A DNA stretch of 32,000 nt from Nostoc punctiforme PCC 73102 (GTDB lineage Bacteria; Cyanobacteriota; Cyanobacteriia; Cyanobacteriales; Nostocaceae): assembly GCF_000020025.1 (NCBI RefSeq), contig NC_010628.1, positions 7,560,001 through 7,592,000 on the forward strand, given 5' to 3'. The translations under genes and the position numbers were made by a program. Below, in pieces: positions 5,371-29,776 of this stretch. The notes beneath the pieces are model-generated. The model was not told where the DNA came from. It ran no database searches and worked only from the letters and a program-made list of their open reading frames with translations. Position 1 is the first letter of the stretch, and each line of letters opens with the position of its first letter.

Positions 5371-5434
5371 AGTCGGTGACGAATGCCTTAATAGTGGGTG
5401 ATATGTACCTCGATAGTGGGTGACGTGTGCCTCA
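5369..5434. repeat. Three phased 22-nt tandem repeats (ATAGTSGGTGAYRWRTGYCTYR)
   Basis: Units: ATAGTCGGTGACGAATGCCTTA (5369-5390), ATAGTGGGTGATATGTACCTCG (5391-5412) and ATAGTGGGTGACGTGTGCCTCA (5413-5434). A related TGGGTGACG is at 5513-5521. Confidence 0.8.
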
Positions 5435-5599
5435 CAAGTGCGTTAATAGTCGCTCAATAAATGGGCTGATTCTGTGGCTCAATGGTTTGTGTTAACTGGC
5501 TTTTAGCGTTTTTGGGTGACGTTTTACGGAGATGAGTTCTGTTACATTCATCCTGTCCACTCTTTCCAACGTGATTTATTTGCCGATTGTTTTTGGGAT

Positions 5600-5626
5600 A
5601 TCCAGGGCACTTTGCTCTGGATTTTT
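5600..5626 (+). terminator. Rho-independent terminator-like hairpin with no assigned upstream gene
   Basis: ATCCAGGGC-ACTTT-GCTCTGGAT gives a 9-bp stem with one G-U pair, followed by TTTTAA. Confidence 0.45.
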
Positions 5627-5720
5627 AATGGGAACCGCTAACCCCGCGACGCTACGACTTACGGGTGAATGCAGCTATTAATGAGACGTTCCGAATGGAT
5701 GAAGGCTACGTATTGTAATA

Positions 5721-6853
5721 CCAATTCTGTATGAAGATGCGCCAAACTACGTCAAACTTATAGATGGGTGCATTTAGTAATTTTGTTATGAGTCGTCCAT
5801 TCCAAATCGAGATTTCAGAAAGCCTTGAAGAATTGGAGAAAGCTCTCAGACATGCCACACAAGCAAGCAGCAAAGAAAGATTGCAAATGCTTTATTGGCT
5901 CAAGAGTGGGCAAGTAAGCAGCAGGCAATCGCTAGCAGAACGTTTAGGCCGTGATGAAGCAACCATAACTCGTTGGGTGAGGAAGTATAAAGACGAAGGA
6001 CGAAAGGGCTTGCTTGAAGTCAAACATGCACCCGGAAAAGTTCCGAGTATCAGTGGTTCAGACTTAGAAAGCTTGAAACAGCAGTTACAAGAATCATCTG
6101 GGTTTCAAAGCTATGGCCAAATTCAACAATGGCTTAAGAGCGAATTAGGACTTTCACTTGCCTACAAAACGGTCTATGAAGTTGTTCACAACCGTTTGGG
6201 TGCAAAGTTAAAAGTGCCTCGTCCTCAAAGCACCAAACAACACCCAGAAAGTCTATCTCACTTTAAAAAAAACTTCCTTTAGCATTCAAATTCTTACAGG
6301 AGGAATTTGGAGAAGGGAAACGATTGAGGTACTTGTGTCAAGATGAAACACGTTTGGGATTAAAGACAATTGCAGGACGTTTAATCACTGCTAAAGGGGT
6401 TAAACCCGTGGGCTTAATTCAATGGCAACGTGAAAATTTTTATTTATACGGAGTTGTGGAACCCCTAAGTGGATACAGCTTTTTCTATGAGTTTCCCTAC
6501 CTCAATGGTGATTGTTTCCAACACTTTTTGGAGTTACTCTCTGCTGACCTTGGCGATGATATTGCGGTTATCCAGTTCGACCAAGGGGCTTTTCACAAAG
6601 CGAAAGCTCTCGATTATCCAGATAACATTATCCCGATTTTTCAACCTCCTCACTCTCCCGAACTTAACCCAATTGAGCGGTTTTGGGAATTTCTCAAATC
6701 TAAACTCCAATGGGAAAATTGTAAAACCCTCGCGCAACTACAGCAGAAGTTAACTGATGCCCTTAAAGCAATTACACCTGAGATGATTGCTTCTCTTACT
6801 TCTTACGACTTTATCCTTGAAGCCTTATTTAGCGCAGCTTCATAAAGAATTGG
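5721..6853 (+). mobile_element. IS630-family insertion sequence (1133 bp) with TIRs and TA target duplication
   Basis: The left end is CCAATTCTGTATGAAG (5721-5736). The right end is CTTCATAAAGAATTGG (6838-6853). They match at 15 of 16 positions as inverted repeats. TA occurs on both flanks (5719-5720 and 6854-6855). Confidence 0.85.
5764..6845 (+). CDS. IS630-family DDE transposase, two frames joined by a putative -1 frameshift in an A8 run
   Basis: OrfA (5764-6282) has HTH motifs (SRQSLAERLGRDEATITRWVRKY). OrfB has the DDE residues (CQDETRLG, IQFDQGAFH, SPELNPIERFW). The orfB frame is open from 6267. TTTAAAAAAAAC at 6262-6273 is the slippery site. Confidence 0.85.
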
Positions 6854-6883
6854 TATAAGGTTTACAAGGTCTACAGTCTGAGA

Positions 6884-7103
6884 ATGAAAATCAATCGGCA
6901 CGGACGCGCCGAAAGTTCTGACTCAGTTAGAGATACAGCTTATTTTCAGTCATGGCTTAGACAATGACCGAGATAGAACTTTATTTGGCGTGTGCCTGTT
7001 CAGTGCTTGCCGTATACGTGAGTGTTGTACCCTCTTGACCACAGACATTTACACGCCCAAAGGTTATGAAGAAAACTACTCCAGAGTAATTATTGCTAAA
7101 TAG
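6884..7103 (+). pseudogene. 5' remnant of a small tyrosine recombinase (frameshifted and truncated)
   Basis: ATG 6884 gives MKINRHGRA, then the frame is lost. The adjacent frame reads KVLTQLEIQLIFSHGLDNDRDRTLFGVCLFSACRIRECCTLLTTDIYTPKGYEENYSRVIIAK then a stop. This is the Arg-box region of integrases. It ends at TAG 7101-7103, exactly where the AT-rich block starts. Confidence 0.65.
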
Positions 7104-7169
7104 GTGCGATTTTTCCTTGTAGCTTCAAAAACTAAGTGTTACTATTTACTAGTAAATCGCATATCTACT

Positions 7170-8264
7170 ATGAACAATAATTCTCAAGGAAATCAAAGTA
7201 ATCCAAACAATCAACTTATAAGCATTTCTAACACTAATTCTAATACAGGTGGATATGTAACTTTACCTATAGCTTCAGACCAATTTCAAGAATTTATTGT
7301 AGCTCTTTTAGGAAGACCACAAACTATTGAGAAAATAATTGCTGGAAGTTTTGAGTTAAATTGGAACGATATACAAAATTTTAATGATTTAATAGACCAA
7401 AGGTTAACTCAAAAAAATCAAGCTGTTCTTATTAGTTTTCAATCTAAAATTTATTTTAATGATGATTCATCTATACTATTAAACTCTTTTCAAGAATTGA
7501 TTACTTATCGGGAAATAAGACCAATTATTCCAACAGCTTTGGATATGAGTTGGGATTATTTAATTCATTTTAATAATAAACAACATCCAGAGAAACAAAC
7601 TATAGATATACACATACAGACGGCTTATCATGAATTAGTTGGTATAGGTAGAAATAAAAGGAATGAAATAATGTTAGAAAATTATAATATAAATAAAAAT
7701 TTTATTCAATTATCAATAAAGTATACAGCTAGAACATGGGGAATGGATATGCAATCTCTACTAGCTTCTCAAATAAATTCTCTAATAAAAATAGAAAATA
7801 GTCAAAAAAGATTTGTTAATAAACATAGTACATTAATCGGAGCCATTTCTGGTACAAGCTTTTTTCTAGGTTCTATTATAGGAACATATTTAGCTAGTAA
7901 TGCATTTATAAAAAATAGATTAAATAAAGTAAATTATGATTTAAACAGAATACAAACATTACCAGACAAAATAAATATAATTGCACAATACATAGTAAAT
8001 GGAGAAACACCAAGATATTACTTGTTAGCAGCTATTTATATATTGCTTTCCTTAATAGCATCTTTTATAATATTTGCAATAGTTTTTGATAAAGCAAATA
8101 ATGAAAAGAGAAGTTTTATTCTATTAACAGATAAAGCAATTCAAGATAAAGAATCTACTCTGAAAAAAATAGATAAAAAATGGAAAGAGTTTATATTGTC
8201 TATTGTGATTAGTTTTATAGTAAATGTTCTATCTAGCTATCTATTTGCTTACATAACACGTTGA
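7170..8264 (+). CDS. Orphan membrane protein: Asn/Gln-rich N-terminus, roughly 230-aa soluble domain, three C-terminal TM helices
   Basis: I prefer ATG 7170 (MNNNSQGNQSNPNNQ) to the GTG at 7104. The hydrophobic segments are LIGAISGTSFFLGSIIGTYLA, YYLLAAIYILLSLIASFIIFAIVF and FILSIVISFIVNVLSSYLFAYI. Codon usage is very AT-rich. Confidence 0.6.
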   Translation: MNNNSQGNQSNPNNQLISISNTNSNTGGYVTLPIASDQFQEFIVALLGRPQTIEKIIAGSFELNWNDIQNFNDLIDQRLTQKNQAVLISFQSKIYFNDDSSILLNSFQELITYREIRPIIPTALDMSWDYLIHFNNKQHPEKQTIDIHIQTAYHELVGIGRNKRNEIMLENYNINKNFIQLSIKYTARTWGMDMQSLLASQINSLIKIENSQKRFVNKHSTLIGAISGTSFFLGSIIGTYLASNAFIKNRLNKVNYDLNRIQTLPDKINIIAQYIVNGETPRYYLLAAIYILLSLIASFIIFAIVFDKANNEKRSFILLTDKAIQDKESTLKKIDKKWKEFILSIVISFIVNVLSSYLFAYITR

Positions 8265-8681
8265 TACTATTTTTTGTGTATGTCTAGACAGTAGAACTTA
8301 AATAAAGTGTAGTTACAATTTGAAAATATTAGTTGTTAAAATACTGTTCTCATAAGCAGAATTCTGATAAGTAGGTACAAAAAATCCCTACCGTCCAGTG
8401 GCAGTGAATGAAGCTCTATAAGGTGGTCGCCTACCATCTTTTAAATACGGAATTATCCCGTATTATAAAGTCATCGCAAAAACCGAGGACTTGACCACCT
8501 TTTAAATAGGCTTTAAAAGCCTTTTATGAGATTGTTGTATTTTTCTACAACCTGACCATTGTTAAAATTGGCTAGGGTTTTATATTTTAGTAACGTATAA
8601 TTAAACATTTTTAGGTTCAGCATTTTCACTTAATGAAAATAACGTAAAAATAGGTTAACTTTGAAAAGTTAATTTACTGAA

Positions 8682-9047
8682 ATGTTTAAAATGTCAGAGA
8701 ATATTCAACTTTTCTTCACATCTATTACGATAATTTTACAAGATATCAAGGAATTAAGCGTTAAATATAAAAACGAGCCTAGATTAGGGTTAACAGAAAT
8801 TATTAAGATAGCTCAAAGTCAAGGTTATGACTTAAATATAGAAGAATTAAAAAAAGTCATAACTACTTTTATGGATTTTAAAAAAGAAGAATTAAAAAAT
8901 AAAGAATACAAAACTAAAACAATAACCTTAGAAGGATGTAGTAATAAAGCTGTAACAGGTAATGAGACTTATGACCAAATAACTTATTATTGCCTACAGT
9001 ATTTGGATAACGATTTTTTAGAATCAGTATATCAACAAAAATCATAA
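8682..9047 (+). CDS. Hypothetical protein with a weak Nif11-like segment
   Basis: LTEIIKIAQSQGYDLNIEELKK resembles FIKIAKERGYDFTTDELEN in the peptide at 732-965. A hairpin plus T-run follows the gene. Confidence 0.45.
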   Translation: MFKMSENIQLFFTSITIILQDIKELSVKYKNEPRLGLTEIIKIAQSQGYDLNIEELKKVITTFMDFKKEELKNKEYKTKTITLEGCSNKAVTGNETYDQITYYCLQYLDNDFLESVYQQKS

Positions 9048-9076
9048 CTCTATAAATCTGATTTATTCAGATTTAG

Positions 9077-9104
9077 ACCCTAGTCGTTATTGGCTAGGGT
9101 TTTG
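9077..9104 (+). terminator. Terminator-like hairpin after ORF 8682-9047
   Basis: ACCCTAG (9077-9083) pairs with CTAGGGT (9094-9100) across a 10-nt loop, followed by TTTG. Confidence 0.5.
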
Positions 9105-9132
9105 AATTGTTCAAGGATACGTAGAGAGTGAA

Positions 9133-9304
9133 CTGTGTCAGGTGCGCTCTATAGTGGGGAGTATTTTATTCTATAGAGGACACCTGACACAGAGGCTAGG
9201 ATTCTTACTCAGAATAGGTTACAGCGATTTAGCTCACTTAGCGGATTTTGGGCAAACAGACACCTGACACAGCAAATTTTAAGTATTTTAGATACCTGAC
9301 ACAG
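9133..9304. repeat. Four copies of ACCTGACACAG (one inverted), two of them forming a 60-nt palindrome
   Basis: Copies: CTGTGTCAGGTG 9133-9144 (inverted), CACCTGACACAG 9181-9192, CACCTGACACAG 9261-9272 and TACCTGACACAG 9293-9304. The arms CTGTGTCAGGTGCGCTCTATAG and CTATAGAGGACACCTGACACAG are near-perfect reverse complements. Confidence 0.8.
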
Positions 9305-9353
9305 TACTATTTTAGACAGATGTTTGGGCTATCGACTTCCACAGTGACCAACA

Positions 9354-9581
9354 TTGCCAGAGATAAATGTTGCTGACGCGGATGTTACCGAGCATGATTC
9401 TAGCTTGATAGATAGTAGTGTAGAACTTCTAAGAGAGTTTCTAGCCGACGGTACTTTAACCTGGGATATGGTCATAGAGTACTTTGATGAGGTAGGTAAA
9501 GAAGCTGAGAAACTGATATGGGAGTTGCTGACGTTAGGTGAACAATTACAAATCAGAATGTTAAAGTCATTAGCCGCTTAA
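9354..9581 (+). CDS. Possible small acidic protein (75 aa, TTG start)
   Basis: ORF only. It has a non-ATG start and no motif, and it sits directly downstream of the ACCTGACACAG repeats. Confidence 0.3.
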   Translation: MPEINVADADVTEHDSSLIDSSVELLREFLADGTLTWDMVIEYFDEVGKEAEKLIWELLTLGEQLQIRMLKSLAA

Positions 9582-9777
9582 ATCAGTGATAGGCAGTATC
9601 TATTCTGGGGATTATATATTAGTTTGATACTTTCTTTAGAATTTCTAATGCAGCATCTCTTATTTGCTGTGCTATCCCCTATATAAAGCACCGCAGGGGT
9701 ATTTTTTAATGCTCATTGTATAGATGTGTTTTAAAATGCGATACCATTACTAAGTAGTTTTAATAGTTAACTAGACT

Positions 9778-10677
9778 ATGACTAACCCTAGTGGAAAAAA
9801 GTGGACTTTAATTTCAGTTCTGACAATTGTACTGACTACTTTAAGTATATATTCTATTGTAGTACTTAATCCAGCCTTCTTCTGTTCTATTTATCATTTA
9901 CTTGGTATACCATCTAGTTTTTGTTCAGATAATAAAAATATATCCACAGTAAAATTATTTATATTAAATGAAAGAGGTGAGCATTTGTCAGATGTAGAGG
10001 TTGAATTTATAGGTATTGATTCACATACTTATTACACTGACAAAAGTGGTTTGGTAGAGGCTCAAATTAAAAATCAAGGAAATATTTTAATTCGTATGAC
10101 TGCGAAAGGTTATCCTGTAGAAACATCTTATCTAGATTTAGATACACCTCAGAGTATTATTCAAAATATTCGACTTGACCAAAGTGGAAAGTCAACTATT
10201 ATTTCTCAGTCTCCTAATCCTTCGGTTACACCAACAGTTACACCAACAGTTACACCAACAGTTACACCAACAGTTACACCAACAGTTACACCAACGATTA
10301 GCAATCTACCTTTAACTGTTGTGCAGGATAATGTAACTTGGGTGTTAACTTCCTGTACTTTAAAAAAGAATATTATTTGCAATTTTGTACTTAGTACAAG
10401 TCTTCCAGAGATAAATTTTGTAGTGGCATTGAACAATGAAACCGAAATAATAGATGATTCAAATATTGAGCATTTTGGAGTCCAAGCTACCATACCAACT
10501 AAAAGTGGTAGTGCAAGTAGTCCTCTTCAGTTTAAAATGGTGAAAGGTGGAACGACTAAACTTAGTGTTGAATATCAAAAATTATCCTCTTCTATTACGC
10601 AAGCAAATCGATTGAAAGTTTCGACTAGTGGATATGGATATACAGTGGTTTTTGAAAATGTTCTTATTACTCAATAG
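9778..10677 (+). CDS. Membrane-anchored or secreted protein: N-terminal TM, beta-sandwich (CarboxypepD_reg-like) segment, (TPTV)n linker, C-terminal beta-rich domain
   Basis: The N-terminal hydrophobic segment is WTLISVLTIVLTTLSIYSIVVL. VEVEFIGIDSHTYYTDKSGLVEAQIKNQGNILIRMTAKGY fits the carboxypeptidase-regulatory-like pattern. PSVTPTVTPTVTPTVTPTVTPTVTPTIS is the linker. Confidence 0.6.
   Translation: MTNPSGKKWTLISVLTIVLTTLSIYSIVVLNPAFFCSIYHLLGIPSSFCSDNKNISTVKLFILNERGEHLSDVEVEFIGIDSHTYYTDKSGLVEAQIKNQGNILIRMTAKGYPVETSYLDLDTPQSIIQNIRLDQSGKSTIISQSPNPSVTPTVTPTVTPTVTPTVTPTVTPTISNLPLTVVQDNVTWVLTSCTLKKNIICNFVLSTSLPEINFVVALNNETEIIDDSNIEHFGVQATIPTKSGSASSPLQFKMVKGGTTKLSVEYQKLSSSITQANRLKVSTSGYGYTVVFENVLITQ
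10225..10296 (+). repeat. Six tandem 12-nt repeats GTTACACCAACA (coding VTPT)
   Basis: Five perfect units plus one variant (GTTACACCAACG), in frame inside CDS 9778-10677. Confidence 0.95.
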
Positions 10678-10844
10678 TTTAGTTATTGCTTAGGATATTT
10701 AGAGTTAGTAACAGATGCCAAAGGTTGTGTTCTCCTATAGGGGAGAGAACACGAATTTTTTCAAAATAAATCTAATCACTAAGCAAATATTTCCACCAAG
10801 CAAACCATTTTGAAATAAGTTGCCAGAAACCATGTACTCATAAT

Positions 10845-10884
10845 TAAATAGCACAAACCTCGTCTATTTGATTTAAACGAGGTT
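10845..10884 (-). terminator. Terminator hairpin downstream of the zinc-ribbon gene (module copy 1)
   Basis: AACCTCGT (10856-10863) pairs with ACGAGGTT (10877-10884) across a 13-nt loop. It lies 50 nt after the minus-strand stop at 10935. Confidence 0.5.
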
Positions 10885-10934
10885 AGTACAGAAGTATTAA
10901 TCAAAGTATTAATCAAAGTATGAATAGCTGTGGT

Positions 10935-11141
10935 TTAACGATTTAACCTTTGTACAACTCCGTCAATTGTGTCTGTTTTTAATGCTACTGGGTCAATTTG
11001 AATGCTCAGTATTGTGTTGCAACTTGGGCAGTTATAAGAAATACAATTCCATGCATCTTTGCCATTTACCTTTCCTGCAATATTTTCAATATTTATTGAA
11101 GTAATCATGGAATCACATTTTGAACATTTTCCAGCAACCAT
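10935..11141 (-). CDS. Small zinc-ribbon protein (68 aa)
   Basis: Two CxxC pairs: CSKCDS near the N-terminus and CPSCNT 30 residues later. Confidence 0.5.
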   Translation of the reverse strand: MVAGKCSKCDSMITSINIENIAGKVNGKDAWNCISYNCPSCNTILSIQIDPVALKTDTIDGVVQRLNR

Positions 11142-11315
11142 CTTTTATTTCCAAACTATAGTTCTAAGATGGTATAGATGTACTAATAAAAAGTTAACCG
11201 TATAAACACTTTAAATTATTTTAATAAATTATGGAAATATAGGTTTACTAAGTAGTACTACTTATAAGAACTTGGATTCTAGTTAACAAAATTCTAACAA
11301 CTAACTTGGAAAGGT

Positions 11316-11354
11316 AGCAAAATAAAACCCCGTCTATTTAATTTAAACGAGGCT
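11316..11354 (-). terminator. Terminator hairpin (module copy 2) downstream of ORF 11389-11706
   Basis: AACCCCGT (11326-11333) pairs with ACGAGGCT (11347-11354). The two mismatches become G-U pairs only in the minus-strand RNA. That RNA is followed by UUUAUUUU (plus-strand aaaataaa at 11318-11325). Confidence 0.6.
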
Positions 11355-11388
11355 AGTATAAATTGCAACTTTAGTTGAATAGCTAATT

Positions 11389-11706
11389 TTAGTTTTCGTG
11401 ATAATGTCCTAAATCAAAAGCAGCAATGATGTGACTACTGTTTATTGTTGCAGTCGGGTAAGTTGAAGGTGCGATTAAAAAAGGCATATTTGAGATGCTT
11501 AGAGGTGGGGTGCCAACTAATAAATTTACTTCTCTCCAGTAGGAACCGTCAGGCATTAAAGTAACTTCATTTATTCTACTAATCCCAATAACAGTACCAC
11601 TTGTAGTAAGTAGACCATAGTAAAATTCGTCTTGTCTAAGTCTTAGTTTAATCCAAGGTGGTAAATTTTCTTCAGTAGGAGTAAGTTTTTGAGTTTCTTC
11701 AGACAT
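11389..11706 (-). CDS. Hypothetical protein (105 aa from MSEETQK)
   Basis: ATG 11706 is preceded on the minus strand by GCTAAGGAGAATCACC, which contains an AGGAG Shine-Dalgarno. No motif recognised. Confidence 0.5.
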   Translation of the reverse strand: MSEETQKLTPTEENLPPWIKLRLRQDEFYYGLLTTSGTVIGISRINEVTLMPDGSYWREVNLLVGTPPLSISNMPFLIAPSTYPTATINSSHIIAAFDLGHYHEN

Positions 11707-12603
11707 GGTGATTCTCCTTAGCAATATCAATCTAGTATTCCCGTCTCTAAATTAAAAACTCTAATTTATTTTTGTTTGATTGAGTAAGTTATGAAAACTG
11801 GGCTTTACCAAAGCTATAGAGAAAAAGCATTCTGCAATCTATCAAACATAGCGCTTTTAAACAGAATTACTTATTAAAACTTGGCAAAATAGAAGCTTGC
11901 CAATAGTAGCAAGGTTAAAGGTCTGGACAGTGTGACCGTGATTATTCCTTGGTTTTTAACTTCCATACCATTTACGCTTACAGCACTACTCCATCTAAAA
12001 ATGGTTATTATAGGTTCTAACTTATGGAAATGACTATGAACCTGAAACAAAAAATAAAGGCTGTGTAGCTCAATCTGAGAGGAGTTATTTACCACAGGAT
12101 AGCTGCTACAAGGCTATAGCAGATTTGCCTTACATCTTAATGTTTCCCAGTCGGAGTAGTTAAATAACGTATGGAAAGTAGAAATTAGATATTTTCTAAC
12201 ACTATTTTTATTAATTAAGAGTCCCGTTTCCTTTAGATTCCCTAGCAAGCATAAAAAGTTGGATGAAAATATACTGAAGTATGTAAGGTATGCAACTTTT
12301 TGCATACCAAAGTGCATACATATAAATATAGGTGATAGTACTCTACCGCAGAGACAGTACCATTATGAAATCAACTTGATACACAAAATATTAAAAAAGT
12401 CAAGTTTGATATAAATTATATTAAAAACTTTCTAACAAGTTCTTAGGAATTATCGGAGACAGGTTTTATAAATGAGTTATAACCAAAAATTATATTAATA
12501 AGTCTGACATATAATTTTTCTGTATTCCAGCTATCCTTTGCAATTCTGTCTCATAGGGTAGATTAGTTTTATCCCGTGAGAGAAAACTAGGATAGCTGGG
12601 ATA

Positions 12604-20255: not shown

Positions 20256-20374
20256 CAATACTTCTCGCTTTGTGGATTTCTAATTCGGAATCGGGTTTGG
20301 GGTAAAGGGTAAAGGGTAAGGGTTAAAGGTTTTTTCTTTCCCTTTCCCCTTTACCCCTTAACCGAGAAGTATTG
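20256..20374. mobile_element. MITE-like element, copy 2 (same family as 1100-1207)
   Basis: TIRs are CAATACTTCTCG (20256-20267) and CGAGAAGTATTG (20363-20374). The interior is a GGTAAAGGG/CCCTTTACC hairpin. It is flanked by the identical 10-bp direct repeat AAAGTAGTGG (20246-20255 and 20375-20384). Confidence 0.8.
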
Positions 20375-20632
20375 AAAGTAGTGGTTTTAGATATGCCAAA
20401 TTTATCAATATATGTTCAAATAGTTTAAATCAGTTTGAAAATAGCAAATATTGACCATTCTTGCTCTAGCGCATTGGTATATCTAAAAAAAAATCTTGAT
20501 CTTATATCTACCTTAAGAAACAAAAATACAATTTGGTTTTATGTCTTCAGGTTTATGAAATCATGACAAACAATGCCTATAGTTGGGTCTTAGGTAGTCA
20601 CATACCTAATTTCGTAAGTGAGGCTAACAATC

Positions 20633-20920
20633 ATGTCATATCAAATCAACAGATCTAAGTTGTTTGTCGAGTTATTTGACGAACAACAAGAGCTAATCGC
20701 TGGTGGTGTAGACTCTCAGAGAAATCAGACCAATTTCGCTAGAAGACTTACAAAGTTAGACGGAAGGAGCAGATCTGGACCTCAAGGCAGCGAAGCTAAC
20801 AGTCAAGGCTCAAATGACGGTACTCAGACATCAGCATCACAGGCCTTACAATTAGGTGGTGCTGCTGTTCTACCTGCACTTGCCTTACCTCCTTTATTAC
20901 CAGGTCTGTTTACCGCTTAG
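20633..20920 (+). CDS. Double-glycine leader peptide precursor P1 (95 aa)
   Basis: The leader is MSYQINRSKLFVELFDEQQELIAGG. I prefer ATG 20633, which lies 9 nt after GTGAGG, to the GTG at 20618. The core is polar and ends in a hydrophobic Pro/Leu/Ala tail (LQLGGAAVLPALALPPLLPGLFTA). Confidence 0.8.
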   Translation: MSYQINRSKLFVELFDEQQELIAGGVDSQRNQTNFARRLTKLDGRSRSGPQGSEANSQGSNDGTQTSASQALQLGGAAVLPALALPPLLPGLFTA

Positions 20921-21943
20921 ATTGATTATTTCCACAGGTAATTTGAAAAAATCAGCTATTACATCATCAGAGCATTTAGCAAATTTAGGCAGAGAAAGAA
21001 GAGAAAGTAAAAAATAAAATGCCAAAAGTATTTTTTGTACTTGTTGGCTTTTATGACTTTTCTTAGTTTAAATTTGCAACTTTGAATCGAGTAGCTGATT
21101 ACTATAGAGACTACCTGTCTACTTTCACCACACAGCACCACCAATTTTATCATTGTGGTGCTGCTGGATAATCTGGAAATTCTAAGTTTCCGCTTCTTAG
21201 CCGATAGATATTCTACATCTTCATCATCTATCAAAATCATCGGCGAAAAGAGTATCAACGAGAAAGTTGTGAGTTAAGGTTTTCAACCATCCAAGAGCGA
21301 ATCTATTTTTTGTAAGACTTGTTTTTTACTATCTATCTTTTTTACCTGACCAGAAATCCAAATAAGTAATTTCAATACTTGTCTGTTATTTGACTCTGCA
21401 TAGAAACCAACCATCCAGATTCAGGGTGTAGGTTTGTAGTTAAGATTGTTTTGTTTATAAATAAAAAAGGGGGCAGAGGAGTTTATTGTAACTCGCTCAA
21501 CGTAAGTGAGGACTTTGAGGGAGTTTGAGCGTTCTCCTCTGTATTCTTACCGCGTTGCCCGCGTTTGAATCTTGAGAAAGATAAATTCGCTTATCTTGTC
21601 GCGCACATCTTTCTCTTCCCCTTTTACTAATTATAGACAATCATAAAACATTATGCTGGGAATTTTTAGCAGTATATACTTTCTCATTCTTGAATTTGGC
21701 AAACACTCCTGATGATAGCCCATTTCACATTGTGATTAGCTATCTGATTAATCTTGGCAAGATTAACATAGACTTTAATTCTTTAATATGCCCTGTGGCG
21801 TATGACCAAAGATATATATTTTTTTGTAGCATCTGATTTGCAATCAATGTATGTAAGATAATCAGCTTTGCAGCAAAAGAATTGGGGTTGATATTATATA
21901 AATCTGAGCTTTTGACGTATACATTTTCAAAAAATGATCTAAC

Positions 21944-23452
21944 ATGGCGAACTATTTAGTCCGCGAGGAAAACTATTTTGGAAATAGGTTTAATGAACCC
22001 AATCCAGAACAACTCCATGTAGTTGATGTTAACGAGTTTCTCCCCCATCTCAGCAAATGGACTAACATTGGCGGAGGAATTTTACTTACTACCTTTGTGG
22101 CTGCGATCGCTCTTACATCTATTCTCAGTTACAATGTCACGGTCAAAGTTCCTGCAAGTATTCGACCTGTAGGAGAACTACGGGTTGTTCAGTCTGCTAT
22201 GGCTGGAACCGTTCAAAACATTGATATTCAAGAAAATCAGGTGGTGGCTCAAGGACAAGCGATCGCTCAAATTGATAATTCTCGCCTTCAGACTCAAAAG
22301 AGTCAACTAGAAAATAGTATTCAGCAAGGTAAATTACAACAAAGTCAAATTAATGCTCAACTGGGTGAAATCGATACCCAGATTGCAGCGCAGACAAACT
22401 TAACCAACCGCACGCTTATTGCTGCACAAGCTGAATTAGATGGGACACAACGCAACTATCAAGATCAGCAAATTAAAGCTGCGGCTGATATGACACAAGC
22501 ACAAGCAGCTTTAATCTTAGCCAAGGTACAACGCGATCGCTTACTAAGGGAAAAAGTTTTAAGGGCAACTGTACAAGAAGCAGAAGCAGCTTTGCAAGTA
22601 GCCAAGGTGCAACGTGACCGATTGCAGCCGATAGTCGCATCGGGATCGGTTTCTCGCAATCTGTTTGAGGAAAAAGAACAAGCAGTTATATCTGCTCAGG
22701 CGAAGCTAGAAGAAGCTAAAGTTACTGCTAAAAATCTTTTGGAGGACAAAGAACAAGCCCTAAATATCGCGCAAACGAATTTAGAAAAAGCTAAAACCGC
22801 AATTAATGCCAGTAATGCTACAGTAATAGTGGCATCTGAACGGATTAAGCAGGAACGGGCTAGAGGTGAGGCTACTTTAGCCGCTTTGAAAAAAGAACGA
22901 GAAACCTTACTCCAGCAACGCCTTGAACTCCAAAAACAACTCGCTAGCAGCAGCAAAGATTTGCAACAGGTTCAAACCGACTTGAATTTGAGTGTGATTC
23001 GATCGCCAATCGCCGGAACACTGTTGCAATTGAATCTTCGCAACCCAGGACAAGTAGTGCAGCCAAGTGAAGCGATCGCTCAGATTGCTCCTCTCAACGC
23101 TTCTTTACTACTTAAAGCTCGTGTGCCGGCTCAAGATATTGACAAGGTAAAAGCAGGACAAAAAGTTCAAATGCAAGTTTCTGCTTGTCCCTATCCAGAC
23201 TACGGCACTCTCAAAGGAACTGTCAAAACAGTTGCACCAGATGCTTTACCTGTAAAAAATAATGGAAATTCAGGTGTAGCCCAGATAGTTGCTTATGAAG
23301 TAACTATTGAGCCACAAACTTCATATTTGAGTAGAGGCGATCGCCAGTGTCATCTGAAAGCGGGTATGGAAGGTAGGGCTGATATAATTTCCCGCCGAGA
23401 AACAGTGCTTCAGTTCATTCTCCGCAAAGCCAGATTCATCACAAATTTTTAA
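21944..23452 (+). CDS. HlyD-family membrane fusion/adaptor protein
   Basis: The N-terminal TM is IGGGILLTTFVAAIALTSILSY. It has a long Gln/Ala-rich coiled coil with a repeated LAKVQRDRL and a C-terminal beta domain. It lies directly upstream of the ABC exporter. Confidence 0.85.
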   Translation: MANYLVREENYFGNRFNEPNPEQLHVVDVNEFLPHLSKWTNIGGGILLTTFVAAIALTSILSYNVTVKVPASIRPVGELRVVQSAMAGTVQNIDIQENQVVAQGQAIAQIDNSRLQTQKSQLENSIQQGKLQQSQINAQLGEIDTQIAAQTNLTNRTLIAAQAELDGTQRNYQDQQIKAAADMTQAQAALILAKVQRDRLLREKVLRATVQEAEAALQVAKVQRDRLQPIVASGSVSRNLFEEKEQAVISAQAKLEEAKVTAKNLLEDKEQALNIAQTNLEKAKTAINASNATVIVASERIKQERARGEATLAALKKERETLLQQRLELQKQLASSSKDLQQVQTDLNLSVIRSPIAGTLLQLNLRNPGQVVQPSEAIAQIAPLNASLLLKARVPAQDIDKVKAGQKVQMQVSACPYPDYGTLKGTVKTVAPDALPVKNNGNSGVAQIVAYEVTIEPQTSYLSRGDRQCHLKAGMEGRADIISRRETVLQFILRKARFITNF

Positions 23453-23464
23453 TCAACGCCGTGT

Positions 23465-23595
23465 CGGGTGCAACTTTCTCTCAGACCTAACCCCCAACCC
23501 CTTCCCTACTAGCGTTGGGGAGCAAGAATCAAAGCCTCTCTCCCTGTGAGGGAGAGGAATGGAAGCGGGGTTCTAAAGATAAGTTGCACATCCCG
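23465..23595. repeat. Nostoc-type intergenic repeat/MITE remnant between hlyD and the ABC gene
   Basis: The terminal imperfect inverted repeats are CGGGTGCAACTT (23465-23476) and AAGTTGCACATCCCG (23581-23595). Internal hairpins include CTCTCTCCCTGTGAGGGAGAGG. Confidence 0.6.
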
Positions 23596-23624
23596 TTAAT
23601 CACTCATTTAATAGGTCTGTAACC

Positions 23625-25793
23625 ATGTTCGATCTATTCAAACCCCATAAAAATTACCAGTGTGTTTTGCAGTTGAGTGAAGAAGACTGTGGAGCCGCCA
23701 GCCTTGCTTCAATTTGCAAACATTACGGACGTTTTTTAAGCATAAATCGCAGTCGAGATGCCGTTGGAACTGGACAGCTAGGAACAACTTTGCTGGGTTT
23801 AAAGCGTGGATCTGAGAATCTGGGTTTTAATGCCAGGGCAGTGAAAGCTTCACCTGCGATCGTGGATAGAATCACAGAAATCAATCTACCAGCAATTATT
23901 CATTGGCGGGGTTATCATTGGGTTGTTTTATACACCAAGCGCGGCAATAAGTACGTTATTGCCGATCCAGCTGTGGGTATCCGTTATATTAACCAAGAAG
24001 AGTTAACAGAAGCTTGGAATGGGGTGATGCTCTTACTAGAGCCAGATCCAGTCCGCTTTTTTGAGCAGCCCGCAGAAGAAGCAAAAGGTGGCTTAAGTCG
24101 CTTTTTAGTACGCATCTTGCCTTATCGTGGACTGCTAACTCAAGTTTTAACGATCAATATTGTCTTAGGTCTGTTGGCTCTAGGTACTCCCGTCTTGATC
24201 CAACTGCTTACAGATGATGTACTTGTGCGTGGAGATACCCAGTTACTCACTGTTGTGATCTCAGCCGTTGTAGTTATGAGCTTATTCGGCAGTACTTTGC
24301 AACTATTGCAGGCGATTATGATTGCTCATTTTGGGCAGCGACTGCAATTAGGATTAGTCTTGGAATTTGGGCGAAAAATTCTCCAATTGCCTTTAAATTA
24401 CTACGAAGCTCGTCGTAGTGGTGAAATCACTAGCCGTCTGCGAGATATCAACGACATCAACCAGTTGGTATCGCAAATTGTAGTTCTTTTACCTAGCCAA
24501 TTTTTTGTTGCCGTGGTTTCTTTTGGCCTGATGCTGTTTTACAGCTGGAAACTGACAATGGCAGTCGTAGTTTTTGCTGGGTTAATTACCCTCTCTACGC
24601 TACCCTTTTTACCCATCCTCCAACAAAAAACCCGCAGTCTCTTAGTTTTAGGGACGGAAAATCAAGGTGTTTTGGTGGAAACATTTAAGGGCGCACAAGT
24701 AATCAAAACTACAAATGCCGCTCCGCAGTTTTGGGATGAATTTCAAAGCCGCTTTGGCTGCCTTGCTAACTTGACTTTTAGCACCATCCAAATCGGTATT
24801 ATCAACGGTACTATTAGCAAGCTTATAGCTAGCCTTGGTGGTGTGATTTTACTTGGTTTAGGAAGTATCTTGGTGATTAATGGGGAATTAAGCATTGGTC
24901 AAATGTTGGCTTTTAACGCCTTACAGTTCAATGTTCTGGCTTTAATTAACTCACTGGTTGGCTTAGTAGATGAATATTTTCGCTCTCAAACAGCAATTTC
25001 TCGCCTTCTAGAAGTTATCGATGCGACACCGGAAGTAGTCGGAGGTAGCCAAAAGCCGGTTGTCCAAATTTCTAGTGATGCAGACATTCGCTGTTCCCAT
25101 GTCCAATTTCACCACCCTGGCAGAGTTGACTTATTAGAGGATTTTTCTCTCAAACTTCCTGGAGGGAAAGCGATCGCTTTGATTGGTAAGTCAGGTTGTG
25201 GTAAAAGTACTTTAGCGAAAGTGATTGCAGGCTTATATCAGCCTAACTCTGGCAATATCCGCATTGGTTTCTATAACATCAACGACCTTTCCCTGGATTG
25301 TTTGCGACAACAAGTAGTCTATGTACCCCAAGAACCTCATTTCTGGAGTCGCTCAATTTTAGAAAACTTCCGCTTAGGAACACCTTATATTTCCTTTGAG
25401 GAAATTGTCAAAGCTTGCCAGATAGCTGATGCAGATGAGTTTATCAGCCAACTTCCGAATCAGTATCAAACAGTTTTAGGGGAATTTGGGGCAAATATCT
25501 CTGGTGGACAAAGACAACGATTAGCGATCGCTAGAGGCATTCTTACCAATCCACCTGTACTGATTTTAGACGAAGCAACAGCTGGACTCGATCCAGTCAG
25601 TGAATCTCACGTACTAGACAGGCTTTTGGAATACCGAGAAGGCAAAACTACTATTTTGATTACCCATCGTCCCAGCGTAATTAATCGAGCCGATTGGATT
25701 GTACTACTAGATAAAGGTCAGGTACAAATACAAGGCGATCTTGAGACTTTTCTCTCTCAGCAAGGAGAGCATTTAAAGTTTTTATCACTGTAA
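23625..25793 (+). CDS. Peptidase C39 domain-containing ABC transporter (bacteriocin/peptide processing exporter)
   Basis: The N-terminal C39 motifs are QLSEEDCGAASLASI (Cys), GYHWVVL (His) and IADPA (Asp). There are six TM segments. The nucleotide-binding motifs are Walker A GKSGCGKST, signature ISGGQRQRLAIAR, Walker B VLILDEAT and H-loop ITHR. Confidence 0.9.
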   Translation: MFDLFKPHKNYQCVLQLSEEDCGAASLASICKHYGRFLSINRSRDAVGTGQLGTTLLGLKRGSENLGFNARAVKASPAIVDRITEINLPAIIHWRGYHWVVLYTKRGNKYVIADPAVGIRYINQEELTEAWNGVMLLLEPDPVRFFEQPAEEAKGGLSRFLVRILPYRGLLTQVLTINIVLGLLALGTPVLIQLLTDDVLVRGDTQLLTVVISAVVVMSLFGSTLQLLQAIMIAHFGQRLQLGLVLEFGRKILQLPLNYYEARRSGEITSRLRDINDINQLVSQIVVLLPSQFFVAVVSFGLMLFYSWKLTMAVVVFAGLITLSTLPFLPILQQKTRSLLVLGTENQGVLVETFKGAQVIKTTNAAPQFWDEFQSRFGCLANLTFSTIQIGIINGTISKLIASLGGVILLGLGSILVINGELSIGQMLAFNALQFNVLALINSLVGLVDEYFRSQTAISRLLEVIDATPEVVGGSQKPVVQISSDADIRCSHVQFHHPGRVDLLEDFSLKLPGGKAIALIGKSGCGKSTLAKVIAGLYQPNSGNIRIGFYNINDLSLDCLRQQVVYVPQEPHFWSRSILENFRLGTPYISFEEIVKACQIADADEFISQLPNQYQTVLGEFGANISGGQRQRLAIARGILTNPPVLILDEATAGLDPVSESHVLDRLLEYREGKTTILITHRPSVINRADWIVLLDKGQVQIQGDLETFLSQQGEHLKFLSL

Positions 25794-25823
25794 AAAATAG
25801 TCTTTGTATGAGCAAATAAAACT

Positions 25824-26141
25824 ATGTCTGAAAATACCAAATCCCATCATCCTGAATGGCTCAGTGATTTGTCGGAAAAAGAACAGGAAAACTTAGCTGC
25901 TGGGCAAATCACAAATATACCTGGCGGAAGTAATTTTTTTCTCCAGCAAACTAATATCCAAAGTGCGGCAGACAATACATTAAAGCTTGTAAGTGGTGAT
26001 GTTTCTTCACAAAAAACTAGATATAGTTTGTCACAATTTACTATTGGATCTTCCATAACGTTTGGTTTACCAAGCTCTAGTTTAGGAGAGAATAAATGGA
26101 AAAATTTAATTGCCAATCTATTAAATAGTATCTTCTCATAA
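25824..26141 (+). CDS. Leader-peptide precursor P2 (105 aa) with a variant Ala-Gly site
   Basis: LSDLSEKEQENLAAG aligns with the L(-12) S(-11) ... L(-4) x x G(-1) positions of P3 and P4. The start lies 31 nt after the ABC stop. The core is Ser/Thr/Gln-rich. Confidence 0.65.
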   Translation: MSENTKSHHPEWLSDLSEKEQENLAAGQITNIPGGSNFFLQQTNIQSAADNTLKLVSGDVSSQKTRYSLSQFTIGSSITFGLPSSSLGENKWKNLIANLLNSIFS

Positions 26142-26173
26142 AAGTTATTTTTTGGAAAATAAATCTTCTAGAC

Positions 26174-26201
26174 GTAGAGGCACAATTACTCGTGCCTCTA
26201 C
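26174..26201 (+). terminator. Hairpin after P2
   Basis: GTAGAGGCAC (26174-26183) pairs with GTGCCTCTAC (26192-26201), a 10-bp perfect stem with an 8-nt loop, followed by ATTTGTT. Confidence 0.55.
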
Positions 26202-26461
26202 ATTTGTTAATAAGATATAGATATCTCAAATCTTAGGTTCCTAAGTCAAGATAAAACTTGAGGTATTTATCAATATTTGGTGCGGTTTTACCAATATTAA
26301 AATGCAAAATTATTTTGATTTTTATTTTATTTTTCATGAGTCAAAAGGAATAAGTTTGTTATTATTATTTCTAACCTGAGAATAATTTAAACTGTCAAAA
26401 AATAATTACTATTAAAAATATAGGTGAATAACACCTATGTTAGTAAGTGAGGTAAAAAATT

Positions 26462-26704
26462 ATGTCAAATCAAATTACCATGTCTGATTTGCTTGTGGAC
26501 TTATCTACAGAGCAACAACAGCTTCTAGCTGGTGGACAAAATGGTGAAGAAGGAGACTCAGGCGATCAAGAATCAGGTGATGAAGGAGCGGTTGATGAAG
26601 AGCCTTCTTCCGTTGGTGGAGGCCCATCTCCAGGCACTTCCCGTCGTAAACGATTCTTTATTAGTGGTATCGTGAGTCTCCGTAAAATCCCAAGGTGGTC
26701 CTAA
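26462..26704 (+). CDS. Double-glycine leader peptide precursor P3 (80 aa), acidic-then-basic core
   Basis: The leader is MSNQITMSDLLVDLSTEQQQLLAGG. GTGAGG lies 9 nt before the ATG. The core is QNGEEGDSGDQESGDEGAVDEEPSSVGGGPSPGTSRRKRFFISGIVSLRKIPRWS. Confidence 0.8.
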   Translation: MSNQITMSDLLVDLSTEQQQLLAGGQNGEEGDSGDQESGDEGAVDEEPSSVGGGPSPGTSRRKRFFISGIVSLRKIPRWS

Positions 26705-26798
26705 ACTTTGGAATTAGTGGGGAAAAGAAAAGCTCATAATAATTCTCTCAAGATAAATTCAATTTTGAGAAAGGATTTGAGCAGTCTCCTATAACCAG

Positions 26799-26820
26799 AC
26801 AAGGGGCTTAAGCCCCTTGT
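26799..26820 (+). terminator. 22-nt perfect palindrome between P3 and P4
   Basis: ACAAGGGGCTTAAGCCCCTTGT. There is no clear T-run, so it may attenuate rather than terminate. Confidence 0.4.
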
Positions 26821-26926
26821 TAAATATAGGTAAACTCCGTTTACTTCAGAGAAAAGTACAGCAAAAGCTGTCTCCCTCAAGGCACTAGCCATTCTTTTGC
26901 ACTGTACAAAAGTGAGGCAAACAATT

Positions 26927-27112
26927 ATGTCATCTCAATCCATCCAATCCGATTTGCTTGTCGAGCTATCCATAGAGCAACAGGAGCTTTTAGGTGGAGG
27001 TTACGTCCGCAGGTGGGGCGGCGGTTTGCGTCCTAGATGGCGCGGCGGTTTGCGTCCTAAATGGGGCGGCGGTTGGCGTCGTGGATGGGGCAGTCCCAGA
27101 TCCTGGTACTAA
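26927..27112 (+). CDS. Double-glycine leader peptide precursor P4 (61 aa), Arg/Trp/Gly-rich cationic core
   Basis: The leader is MSSQSIQSDLLVELSIEQQELLGGG. I prefer ATG 26927, 9 nt after GTGAGG, to the TTG at 26897. The core is YVRRWGGGLRPRWRGGLRPKWGGGWRRGWGSPRSWY. Confidence 0.8.
   Translation: MSSQSIQSDLLVELSIEQQELLGGGYVRRWGGGLRPRWRGGLRPKWGGGWRRGWGSPRSWY
27017..27088 (+). repeat. Three tandem 24-nt repeats encoding GGGLRPRW / RGGLRPKW / GGGWRRGW
   Basis: Units: GGCGGCGGTTTGCGTCCTAGATGG, CGCGGCGGTTTGCGTCCTAAATGG and GGCGGCGGTTGGCGTCGTGGATGG. They are in frame within P4. Confidence 0.9.
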
Positions 27113-27278: not shown

Positions 27279-27306
27279 AAAAAGCCCGTTAAAACGGGCT
27301 TTTATC
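27279..27306. terminator. Bidirectional terminator between the peptide genes and the convergent hydrolase gene
   Basis: AAAGCCCGT-TAAA-ACGGGCTTT, flanked by an A-run on the left and TTATCTT on the right. Confidence 0.65.
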
Positions 27307-28321: not shown

Positions 28322-28577
28322 GGGAAATTTTAGGAATACAAGAGTAAAAGCCCGTCAGCAGCAAGGCGTAAGTAAAATTCTTTTGAATTTGAATAAAATT
28401 TATCAGATTTTCAAATAAAATCCTTTGGTCTAGTGATAACTTAGACATACACTAGAAAAGCTTCTAGGTTGATAGTTTTATCCAGGTAAAGAGTTTTCAT
28501 CTTGTTGATAGAGGTAATTTCCTCACAACTTAGATTATGTCAGCATTAGGAATCATCGCTTCTATAATATGAGTAAT

Positions 28578-29580
28578 AGACTTGTCGGGAAATAAGAGAG
28601 AATAGACAGCAGTGGTAGGGAAGAATGATGCTGAATATTGAAGGTGCGCTGAAGCAAGACCGACTGTTGAGGGCATTAACTGGGTTGAACCGGAAAGCAT
28701 TTGATGCCCTTTTGCCCACGTTTACCACGATGTACCTAGATACTCAACAGGCCAAGCCTCGTCAACGTGGCCTGGGTGGAGGACGCAAAGCCCGCTTACT
28801 TACAGCCCAAGACAAATTGTTTTTCATCCTTTTCTATTTCAAATGTTATCCGACCTTCGATGTGGCGGGACTGCTCTTTGATATGCATCGCTCCCAGGCA
28901 CATGAGTGGATGCATCGATTGCAGCCAATATTAGAAGCGGCTTTGGGACAGAAGATGGCGCTGCCGGAACGCCATCTCGAAAGCATTGAAGCATTTTTGT
29001 CACGCTTTCCAGGAGTGCAACGAGTGATGATTGATGGGACAGAACGCCCAATTGCGCGACCTCAAGAAAGAGAACAACAACAACAGAATTACTCCGGTAA
29101 AAAGAAACGTCATACGCGTAAACACTTGGCGGCAGTTGATGAAACCAAACGGGTCTTGATCTTAAGCAAAGCACGAGAAGGCAAACTGCATGACAAACGT
29201 TTTCATGACGAAGATGACATTGCAGGTAGTGTGCCTGATGAAATTCCGATTGAAGTAGACTCGGGCTTTCAGGGATTACAGAAGCAGTATGACAATCTCC
29301 ATCTTCCTCACAAAAAGCCCAAAGGGGGCAAGTTAAGTGACCTTCAAAAAACGGAGAATCGTCAATTGAGTCAATCCCGTGTAGTTTGCGAAAATGCCTT
29401 TGCTGGTGTGAAGCGCTACAACGCCGCCAGTGTCATTTATCGTAATCGGATTGAAAACTTTGATGACCATTTGATGCTGACCGCAGCAGGATTATGGAAC
29501 TTCTACTTGATGGCTGCTTAAGAGAATCCCAATTACAAGACCAGCATTGCCTCACTTATCTTTTATTTCCCGACAACTCT
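28578..29580 (+). mobile_element. IS5-family (DDE_Tnp_4/Harbinger-like) insertion sequence, 1003 bp
   Basis: The TIRs are AGACTTGTCGGGAAATAAGAGA (28578-) and the reverse complement of TCTTTTATTTCCCGACAACTCT (-29580). They match at about 22 of the first 24 positions. AAT occurs on both flanks (28575-28577 and 29581-29583). Confidence 0.8.
28625..29521 (+). CDS. IS5-family DDE transposase
   Basis: 298 aa. It has an N-terminal HTH region. The candidate DDE residues are MIDGTERP, EVDSGFQG and CENAFAGVKRY. Confidence 0.8.
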   Translation: MMLNIEGALKQDRLLRALTGLNRKAFDALLPTFTTMYLDTQQAKPRQRGLGGGRKARLLTAQDKLFFILFYFKCYPTFDVAGLLFDMHRSQAHEWMHRLQPILEAALGQKMALPERHLESIEAFLSRFPGVQRVMIDGTERPIARPQEREQQQQNYSGKKKRHTRKHLAAVDETKRVLILSKAREGKLHDKRFHDEDDIAGSVPDEIPIEVDSGFQGLQKQYDNLHLPHKKPKGGKLSDLQKTENRQLSQSRVVCENAFAGVKRYNAASVIYRNRIENFDDHLMLTAAGLWNFYLMAA

Positions 29581-29776
29581 AATATTTTTGCCATTTTTTT
29601 AGATGTGAGTGAATTAGCATCAGTGCTAGATTCAGTAGATTCACAATTTACGATCGCTATTTTGATCTATAACATTGTCAGAATATGAGGCATCGGCTAA
29701 GGGGTGGTTTGCAACTGGAAACTGACGCTGAATTTAACAACATTTTTCTTGTTCCTAGTTCTGCGAGCCAGACAAT

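Follow-up and report, generated by a model that had tools for sequence, protein, structure and literature searches.

A catalogued peptide-secretion locus of Nostoc punctiforme: its cargo across 80 Nostocales loci and a conserved structured element between its genes

What does a cyanobacterium send out through an exporter whose several small substrates share a leader type and differ in everything behind it, and what might hold the expression of such substrates together? We took up this question for a locus of Nostoc punctiforme PCC 73102 that lies in a window of 32,000 nt (CP001037:7560001-7592000), the whole stretch of DNA that was analysed and the frame for all coordinates below. The locus, in which a HlyD-family adaptor and a C39 peptidase-containing ABC exporter stand among four small precursors with double-glycine (GG) leaders, P1 to P4, is a peptide-secretion locus of a known kind and was already catalogued in 2011. 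As a whole it is best explained, and we think probably so, as a type-I-like export system of the peptidase-containing ABC transporter (PCAT) kind, dedicated to small GG-leader proteins that remain unmodified and most likely serving a matrix-type role; a layer of small RNA (sRNA) regulation would come on top of it. What is new here is the comparative anatomy of 80 Nostocales loci and a highly conserved, small-RNA-like element between P1 and hlyD, and it is this element that is worth an experiment.

The exporter and its cargo across Nostocales

An earlier note made from the letters of this DNA had described a HlyD protein and a C39-ABC exporter with four double-glycine precursors, and all six open reading frames (ORFs) are present where it placed them, on the + strand, each encoding an exact match to an N. 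punctiforme entry (ACC84417-84420, WP_041565746 and WP_234711011). Lengths are given in amino acids (aa), and CDS numbers are those of Wang et al., 2011.

20633-20920, + strand: P1, CTB-family GG-leader precursor, 95 aa (25-aa leader, 70-aa core); CDS18; WP_234711011, annotated with a shorter start
21944-23452, + strand: HlyD-family membrane-fusion (periplasmic adaptor) protein, 502 aa, long coiled coil; ACC84417
23625-25793, + strand: PCAT of the 'short type', 722 aa; ACC84418
25824-26141, + strand: P2 (Npun_F6131), GG/AG-leader precursor, 105 aa; conserved family
26462-26704, + strand: P3 (Npun_F6132), GG-leader precursor, 80 aa; acidic low-complexity core, then basic C-terminal motif RRKRFFISGIVSLRKIP
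26927-27112, + strand: P4 (CDS20, WP_041565746), GG-leader precursor, 61 aa; 36-aa Gly/Trp/Arg-rich core, net charge +10

The start of 20614 that had been given for the left end of the locus takes in bases upstream of P1.

The exporter matches C39 (PF03412, 118 bits), ABC_membrane (PF00664, 110 bits) and ABC_tran (PF00005, 114 bits) above the Pfam gathering thresholds, and it aligns over its full length to PCAT1 (4RY2; E 9e-111) and to ComA. Its C39 Cys, His and Asp had been described as intact, and this is borne out: Cys22, His98 and Asp114, together with the oxyanion residue Gln16, align with the catalytic residues of ComA-PEP (3K8U) and PCAT1. Behind the peptidase follow a six-helix transmembrane domain and a nucleotide-binding domain, and the translation reads GKSGCGKST for Walker A, ISGGQRQR for the signature and ILDEAT for Walker B. 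As in tripartite type I systems, a HlyD-family protein is encoded beside the ABC gene, and it scores 76 bits with Pfam HlyD_3 (PF13437; gathering threshold 22.2). The leaders of P1, P3 and P4 are exactly the 25-residue sequences ending in GG that the note had quoted, and the variant leader of P2 likewise ends as quoted, in LSEKEQENLAAG. These features suggest a scheme in which the conserved, acidic, helical leader of about 25 residues would be recognised by the ABC exporter, the N-terminal C39 cysteine protease would cut after GG (AG in P2), and the cores, unmodified by any locus-encoded enzyme, would then leave the cell by way of the HlyD adaptor and a TolC-like channel in the outer membrane whose gene lies elsewhere.

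The same peptides have been listed before. Table S3 of Wang, Fewer & Sivonen 2011 (PLoS One 6:e22384) gives the locus as a "group III" bacteriocin cluster at CP001037:7580633-7587112, with P1 (CDS18), P2 (Npun_F6131), P3 (Npun_F6132) and P4 (CDS20) as precursors, plus a further one, CDS19. Group III was defined there by a short-type C39-ABC, HlyD and precursors, with no second ABC, LanM, SurA or S8 protein (PLoS One 6:e22384). The present locus differs from that group in nothing of kind: its 722-aa exporter starts with the C39 domain and has no CAP_ED extension, and HlyD and several GG-leader precursors are present. The novelty implied by the earlier note thus falls away, because Table S3 names these same peptides; the observation was right and already published, and the peptide-export locus as first reported changes nothing. 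The 2011 account does not cover the synteny across the order, the division of the cargo into conserved and variable sets or the RNA element set out below, and its label NHLP for the leaders is not reproduced by the NCBIfam NHLP and Nif11 models (TIGR03793/TIGR03798), which at E up to 1 match none of P1-P4; leaders of that type have about 70-80 aa, those of P1-P4 25-27 aa. CDS19 (21400-21528) is probably a spurious ORF, having no Met start and no leader and overlapping the RNA element.

Against NCBIfam models, as the note had proposed, only P1 passes a cut-off: NF038167, 'CTB family bacteriocin', matches it at 79.2 bits (cut-off 32; E 1.9e-22) over model positions 1-72 of 72, and the RefSeq name of WP_234711011 is likewise 'CTB family bacteriocin'. 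P2, P3 and P4 match that model in the leader only and stay under the cut-off (24.6, 24.2 and 20.9 bits; E 2e-5, 2.7e-5 and 3e-4), and they have the leader type in common with the CTB family without being members of it. By similarity the four cores form separate clusters, and Cys is absent from all of them. Beyond these four, a regular expression, a protein hidden Markov model of the leader and a DNA profile of 383 cargo 5' regions found no further GG-leader genes or decayed cassettes in the window.

For comparison we used the 80 best relatives of the exporter, from 80 Nostocales species, whose loci were surveyed with tblastn and an iterated leader profile. A single gene order, [CTB]n, HlyD, ABC, P2 family, variable peptides, is common to the 80 loci, and 399 of their 404 leader ORFs lie on the exporter's strand. 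CTB genes occur in one to eight tandem copies (141 genes in 61 loci), always upstream of hlyD, and the P2 family holds a fixed position in 56 loci, starting about 30 nt after the ABC stop. After it come one to several peptides with the same leader and highly diverse, low-complexity cores (Gly 22%, Arg 9%, Tyr 8%), many of them built of WGGG/RP, YGG/RP or PYP repeats or of acidic runs joined to a basic motif. Next comes a convergent alpha/beta hydrolase gene, and after it a thioredoxin-like gene, pyrH and frr; the frequent neighbours of the locus are housekeeping genes.

The machinery and the cargo evolve at different rates. The exporter is 74-98% identical over its full length across the 80 species and is as conserved as housekeeping genes, and HlyD is 49-96% identical in 79 loci. 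Between the window and its closest relatives the ratio of nonsynonymous to synonymous substitution rates (dN/dS) is 0.11 for the exporter, about 0.2 for HlyD, about 0.25 for P2, about 0.5 for P1 and about 0.4-1.1, from small counts, for the P3 and P4 cores, whose leaders are conserved; in one close relative (L003) the P4 core has been swapped for a different one and the leader kept. P1 and P2 thus belong to conserved fixed-position families, whereas P3 and P4 lie in a cassette-like variable region. The earlier description of four unrelated cores holds within the window and needs qualifying beyond it, as P1 and P2 each belong to a Nostocales-wide family at a fixed position and only the P3/P4 region is hypervariable. 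In heterocyst-forming cyanobacteria the locus is a core feature of the chromosome, its cargo made up of two conserved families and a set of rapidly exchanged low-complexity peptides.

The note had also stated that tailoring and immunity genes are missing, and for the locus this stands. Inspection of ORFs and of Pfam and NCBIfam matches revealed no tailoring enzyme between 20 and 27.4 kb, and clustering of all ORFs of at least 110 aa revealed none that is co-conserved in the 80 loci; such a co-conserved enzyme is what, according to the note, would undermine the 'unmodified' claim. Nor is an immunity protein recognisable here or co-conserved in the 80 loci: of the small intergenic ORFs, some lack conservation and the others are interrupted by stops in close relatives, and a transmembrane-like stretch is missing from all of them. 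The locus accordingly has neither the tailoring enzyme and core Cys that mark clusters for ribosomally synthesised and post-translationally modified peptides nor the immunity gene beside a toxin gene that marks class II microcins; among the downstream cores of the relatives, 50 of 176 have at least two Cys. One candidate tailoring enzyme, a 234-aa membrane protein found in 52 loci and absent from the window, had no match in Pfam, NCBIfam or the PDB and was set aside, being named as a SEC59/DGK1/VTE5 phytol-kinase-type housekeeping protein.

Some points count against the reading as a secretion system. The HlyD protein scores 154 bits with TIGR01843, under the cut-off of 208.65, tailoring enzymes encoded at a distance are possible, and literature searches for Npun_F6129-6132 or NpF613x gave nothing relevant. 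A TolC-like outer-membrane factor was not found among the ORFs of the window; it is presumably encoded elsewhere, like HgdD in Anabaena.

Several features of the machinery and of the cores were seen in passing. HlyD comes in two lengths among the relatives, about 502 aa and about 604 aa (the longer in, for example, L011, L030 and L064), and we suspect, going by the repetitive Gln/Ala/Leu-rich middle of the window protein, that the extra length is a coiled-coil insertion. The 172-nt spacer between hlyD and the ABC gene (23453-23624) is mostly unalignable with two relatives (L001 and L002; 19% aligned) in which the flanking genes are 97% identical, which suggests a small indel or repeat insertion. 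Inside the CTB cores an LGLG[GA]/LQLGG motif is conserved (...QALQLGG|AAVLP... in P1), followed by a hydrophobic Gly/Pro/Ala tail that varies, and this motif resembles a second double-glycine site, except that its -4 position is not hydrophobic. Lastly, several unrelated downstream core families (P3 and those of L014, L017, L018, L031 and L034) share a basic strand-like motif, R-x-[IFP]-[PV]-[VI]-R-[IL]-x-G-[FIV], flanked on both sides by acidic low-complexity runs.

A conserved, structured element between P1 and hlyD

The 1-kb spacer between P1 and hlyD contains a sequence, at about 21460-21640, that recurs in 67 of the 80 loci at 70-96% nucleotide identity, far above that of the neighbouring peptide genes, and always 300-480 bp upstream of hlyD in one orientation. 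Its parts, and the two cargo motifs that bear on it, are as follows (SD, Shine-Dalgarno).

21460-21623, - strand: conserved structured element, putative ~164-nt small RNA; three hairpins in a closing helix, ending in CCCCCUUUUUU
21511-21502, - strand: invariant apical loop CCUCACUUAC, in 66-68 of 68 sequences
21635-21630, - strand: near-invariant TATAAT, a presumed -10 box, at least 90% conserved in 68 sequences, 7-8 nt upstream of the putative RNA start
20613-20623, + strand: SD-containing motif CGTAAGTGAGG, 9 nt before the P1 ATG; complementary to the element's loop over 11 nt
26443-26452, + strand: motif GTAAGTGAGG upstream of P3; 10 nt complementary to the element's loop

The element is structured, and the structure is supported by covariation. 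Many of its columns are at least 90% identical across 68 sequences; read on the minus strand it folds with a minimum free energy of -58.3 kcal/mol (z -6.9), and on the plus strand the z-score is -4.5. In the alignment of the 68 sequences 81.4% of cells are paired, against 45-56% when the partners are slid, and 162 cells are compensatory, against 52-64 when slid and 70 +/- 7 when shuffled, with 0 of 500 shuffles reaching 162. Because the promoter box and a U-tract lie on the minus strand, the element probably encodes an RNA of ~164 nt on that strand, which would start near 21623 (AAAGGGG...) and end at about 21460. Rfam, including Yfr1 (RF01116), gave no relevant match at E up to 10 on either strand, and our searches of Rfam and of the literature turned up no account of an RNA like it. 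Two coding readings were rejected: a 17-codon uORF with a TTG start on the plus strand, in which substitutions follow no codon pattern, and a 47-aa ORF on the minus strand, which again has no codon pattern and whose start lies upstream of the putative transcription start.

What ties the element to the cargo is its loop. CCUCACUUAC is the exact complement of the motif GUAAGUGAGG in the 5' untranslated regions (UTRs) of P1, P3 and P4, each of which has, 8-9 nt ahead of the ATG, a motif that includes an SD sequence, (C)GTAAGTGAGG or AAGTGAGG. The whole 32-kb window has exactly three copies of the 10-mer GTAAGTGAGG, one before P1, one in the element and one before P3. The 5' consensus over 383 leader genes is ACGTAAGTGAGGCTAAAAATTATG, with an SD-like core in 302 of the 383 and GTGAGG in 181, and around P1 itself the 5' region (about 20500-20632) is conserved in at least 41 loci, with columns at least 90% identical across 41 loci. 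P2 has no SD motif of its own and abuts the ABC gene, and it is probably co-transcribed with the exporter. Taking as a match any identity of at least 10 nt that the loop complement shares with the 35 nt before a start codon, we found the following counts across the loci.

CTB genes: 70/129
Downstream peptide genes: 50/147
P2-position genes: 7/52
Control ORFs: 3/668

GTGAGG precedes 174 of 329 peptide genes in loci that have the element and 7 of 54 in the 13 loci that lack it. Duplex energies were computed for the seed only, full-length folding of sRNA and mRNA having given spurious long-range loops; they come to -19.2 kcal/mol for P1, -16.6 for P3 and -12.6 for P4, compared with -4.4 for P2, -2.7 for hlyD, -4.6 for the ABC gene, a window median of -5.15 and -12.4 for the best unrelated site.

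On the strength of this complementarity we tentatively propose, as a possibility that falls somewhat short of probable, that the locus carries its own order-wide conserved sRNA (minus strand, about 21623 to 21460), whose loop CCUCACUUAC would act as an anti-Shine-Dalgarno sequence on the GUAAGUGAGG motif of otherwise unrelated GG-leader cargo genes. From its gene, which would lie in divergent orientation between P1 and hlyD, the RNA would present CCUCACUUAC in a hairpin loop and pair with the ribosome-binding regions of the P1, P3 and P4 mRNAs, and such pairing would mask the ribosome-binding sites of independently transcribed cargo genes and so tune cargo translation. If this is true, one RNA gates translation of a whole evolutionarily fluid cargo repertoire, coupling cargo synthesis, for example, to exporter capacity or to sessile or stress states; it would illustrate how unrelated proteins can be co-regulated through a conserved cassette of 5' UTR and leader, and to our knowledge the RNA would be the first regulator known for such loci.

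The main alternative is that the element acts in cis, as a structured plus-strand leader (5' UTR) of the hlyD-ABC transcript that shows a GUAAGUGAGG site to a shared factor such as Yfr1, or that it is a relic of a cargo-gene 5' UTR. We regard this as possible and rather doubtful. Folding is good on the plus strand too, the two strands pair equally well, the position and orientation relative to hlyD are constant, the element's motif is identical to that of the cargo 5' UTRs, and Yfr1 carries UCCUCAC. Set against these are the near-invariant TATAAT and the better U-tract of the minus strand, its more stable fold, the absence of any codon pattern after the motif (the alignment being read by eye) and the leftward reads reported for the presumably corresponding intergenic region of PCC 7120, upstream of alr1200 (Flaherty et al.). 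Further, the cargo 5'-region profile misses the element, which is therefore not simply a decayed cassette. The element and Yfr1 (RF01116) do have in common a CCUCAC-type anti-Shine-Dalgarno sequence that is single-stranded between or within hairpins, CACUCCUCACACC being unpaired in Yfr1; they differ in length (about 164 nt against about 60-80 nt), in structure and in locus, the element being restricted to this secretion locus.

Other observations count against the minus-strand sRNA. The set of 327 sRNAs predicted for PCC 7120 (Brenes-Alvarez 2016 Table S3) does not include the element, which also favours the cis-acting alternative, and a search by coordinates through the tables of that study gave no entry for this RNA. 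G-U pairs fail to separate the strands (81.4% against 80.3%), and the U-tract is weak in many species. The duplex energy of P4 equals that of the best unrelated background site, and the co-occurrence of element and motif is confounded by phylogeny, because the 13 loci that lack the element are clustered lineages.

What the secreted peptides may do

The note had called the products and roles of unmodified cargo of this class essentially untested. This is outdated, because genetics and mass spectrometry have shown that a cluster of the same class in Synechococcus elongatus secretes GG-cleaved, unmodified biofilm proteins. The EbfG1-4/PteB cluster of S. elongatus PCC 7942, likewise group III in the Wang table (PLoS One 6:e22384), encodes four unmodified GG-motif proteins that are needed for biofilm and whose secretion depends on the C39 cysteine of PteB, and mass spectrometry detected peptides starting directly after GG/GA (PMC4997328); later work added amyloid and matrix roles (PMC9981879). 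Both clusters combine a C39-ABC and HlyD with four small GG-motif proteins and no immunity gene, and the EbfG cargo is of Pro/Tyr-rich low complexity. A further peptidase, EbfE, is involved in S. elongatus (PMC12267927). Function is proven there and putative in N. punctiforme. We know of no sRNA described for the EbfG1-4/PteB system.

A similar cluster lies in Anabaena. In PCC 7120 the genes alr1200 (HlyD), alr1201 (ABC) and asr1202-asr1204 (plus CDS21) have an unannotated peptide upstream and three peptides downstream, of which the last is very basic (pI 12.3) (PLoS One 6:e22384), and they were flagged in 2025 as an EbfG/PteB-like candidate (PMC12267927). The layout is the same as that of the N. 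punctiforme locus, and from this layout, the sole ground for calling the two orthologous, alr1200-asr1204 is the probable counterpart; asr1202 encodes 62 aa and P2 105 aa. Expression of asr1202 is 11-fold up in Anabaena biofilms. Both N. punctiforme and Anabaena are good systems for testing the function of unmodified GG peptides.

By analogy with EbfG1-4/PteB, the foremost candidate role, in our judgement only just less than probable, is that the cargo consists of self-assembling or surface/matrix proteins of sheath or biofilm. The core-like conservation of the locus and its mixed pattern of cargo speak for a function in the organism's own physiology, at the surface or in matrix or biofilm and perhaps with some antimicrobial activity on the side, over a strain-specific weapon. 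AlphaFold2 models, from shallow alignments (6 sequences for P1, 9 for P2) and of low overall confidence (means 52.6 and 59.7), give P2 a leader helix, a long beta-hairpin at 35-79 (20+20 residues, rich in Asn/Gln/Ser/Thr, pLDDT about 80) and a C-terminal amphipathic helix, and give P1 one helix followed by a mostly disordered core; the predicted folds are compatible with self-assembling or matrix proteins and prove nothing. Weighing against a matrix role, the gene order in S. elongatus is ebfG1-4, pteB, hlyD, whereas here HlyD precedes the ABC gene; no similarity of cores has been reported, and blastp by the authors of that work found no homologues in Anabaena (PMC12267927) or in other cyanobacteria (PMC4997328). 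Fast core turnover and a Trp/Arg peptide of charge +10 fit antagonism as well as they fit matrix.

A classical bacteriocin role is a serious rival. Antimicrobial action of the cationic members is conceivable, if not likely, and we hold it unlikely, too, that the locus as a whole is an unmodified bacteriocin or microcin-type weapon whose cores, especially cationic P4 and CTB-type P1, inhibit competitors and whose variable region diversifies in an arms race. The machinery matches that of class II microcin export, CvaA/CvaB/TolC (colicin V). With those systems and with the Gram-positive PCATs (PCAT1, ComA, LahT) the locus has the C39 catalytic residues and GG-leader substrates in common, its HlyD-type adaptor matching the Gram-negative ones; it differs from both in having no immunity gene, in its multiple heterogeneous cargo and in being part of an order-wide chromosomal core set. 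Database labels and the 2011 classification also speak for a weapon, as do the Trp/Arg-rich composition of P4, dN/dS values of about 1 in the P3/P4 cores, the core replaced behind a conserved leader in L003, and the induction of tandem CTB genes by phosphate limitation, a nutrient stress, in Nodularia. What counts against it is that no immunity-like gene is found here or co-conserved, that across the order the exporter, CTB and P2 families are core genes with a constant place in the chromosome rather than strain-variable accessory ones, and that the cluster of this Wang group for which experiments exist makes biofilm matrix rather than killing.

That the peptides are signals, pheromone- or morphogen-like and coordinating hormogonia, akinetes or patterning as thought for ComA or HetC, is improbable: PCATs do export pheromones, HetC is a PCAT needed for heterocyst development, and among the 80 best relatives the locus is apparently confined to heterocystous cyanobacteria, in which it is conserved, but the cores, at 36-78 aa, are long, and they are numerous, low in complexity and hypervariable, no sensor kinase/regulator pair is adjacent, and the exporter is of the short type, without the cNMP/CAP_ED regulatory domain of HetC.

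Expression signals and flanking DNA

The remaining signals point to four transcription units, P1, hlyD-ABC-P2, P3 and P4, and the variable downstream peptides would each have their own promoter and conserved 5' UTR.

20578-20583, + strand: TATAGT, probable -10 box of the P1 gene, within a promoter scan match at 20555-20583
26174-26201, + strand: terminator-like hairpin after P2, 10-bp stem with 6 G-C pairs, by consensus match only
27280-27303, both strands: bidirectional terminator-like hairpin separating P4 from the convergent alpha/beta-hydrolase gene, at the right end of the locus

On the left, the SEC59/DGK1/VTE5 protein (L004:2125-2829 and 51 other loci) is what usually adjoins the locus; this flank is rearranged in N. 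punctiforme and its closest relatives, with glcD in its place and the kinase elsewhere in the genome. Between glcD and P1, at 20286-20371, a long hairpin of GGGTAAA-like heptamer repeats, with weak chance matches to miRNA models, looks like a Nostoc short tandem repeat (STRR-like) element. On the right, the alpha/beta hydrolase is generic and lies on the opposite strand. Between it and the thioredoxin-like gene, the interval 28322-29776, only 31% of which aligns in the closest relatives, includes an IS5-family transposase (ORF 28625-29521, + strand) and is a strain-specific insertion. Far to the left, positions 1-12500 form an island of low GC content, 27-35% at 7-12.5 kb. An ORF resembling an integrase (2526-3581), split transposase ORFs (5764-6845) and a (TPTV)n-repeat protein (9778-10677) lie in this region, which is probably mobile or foreign and unrelated to the locus.

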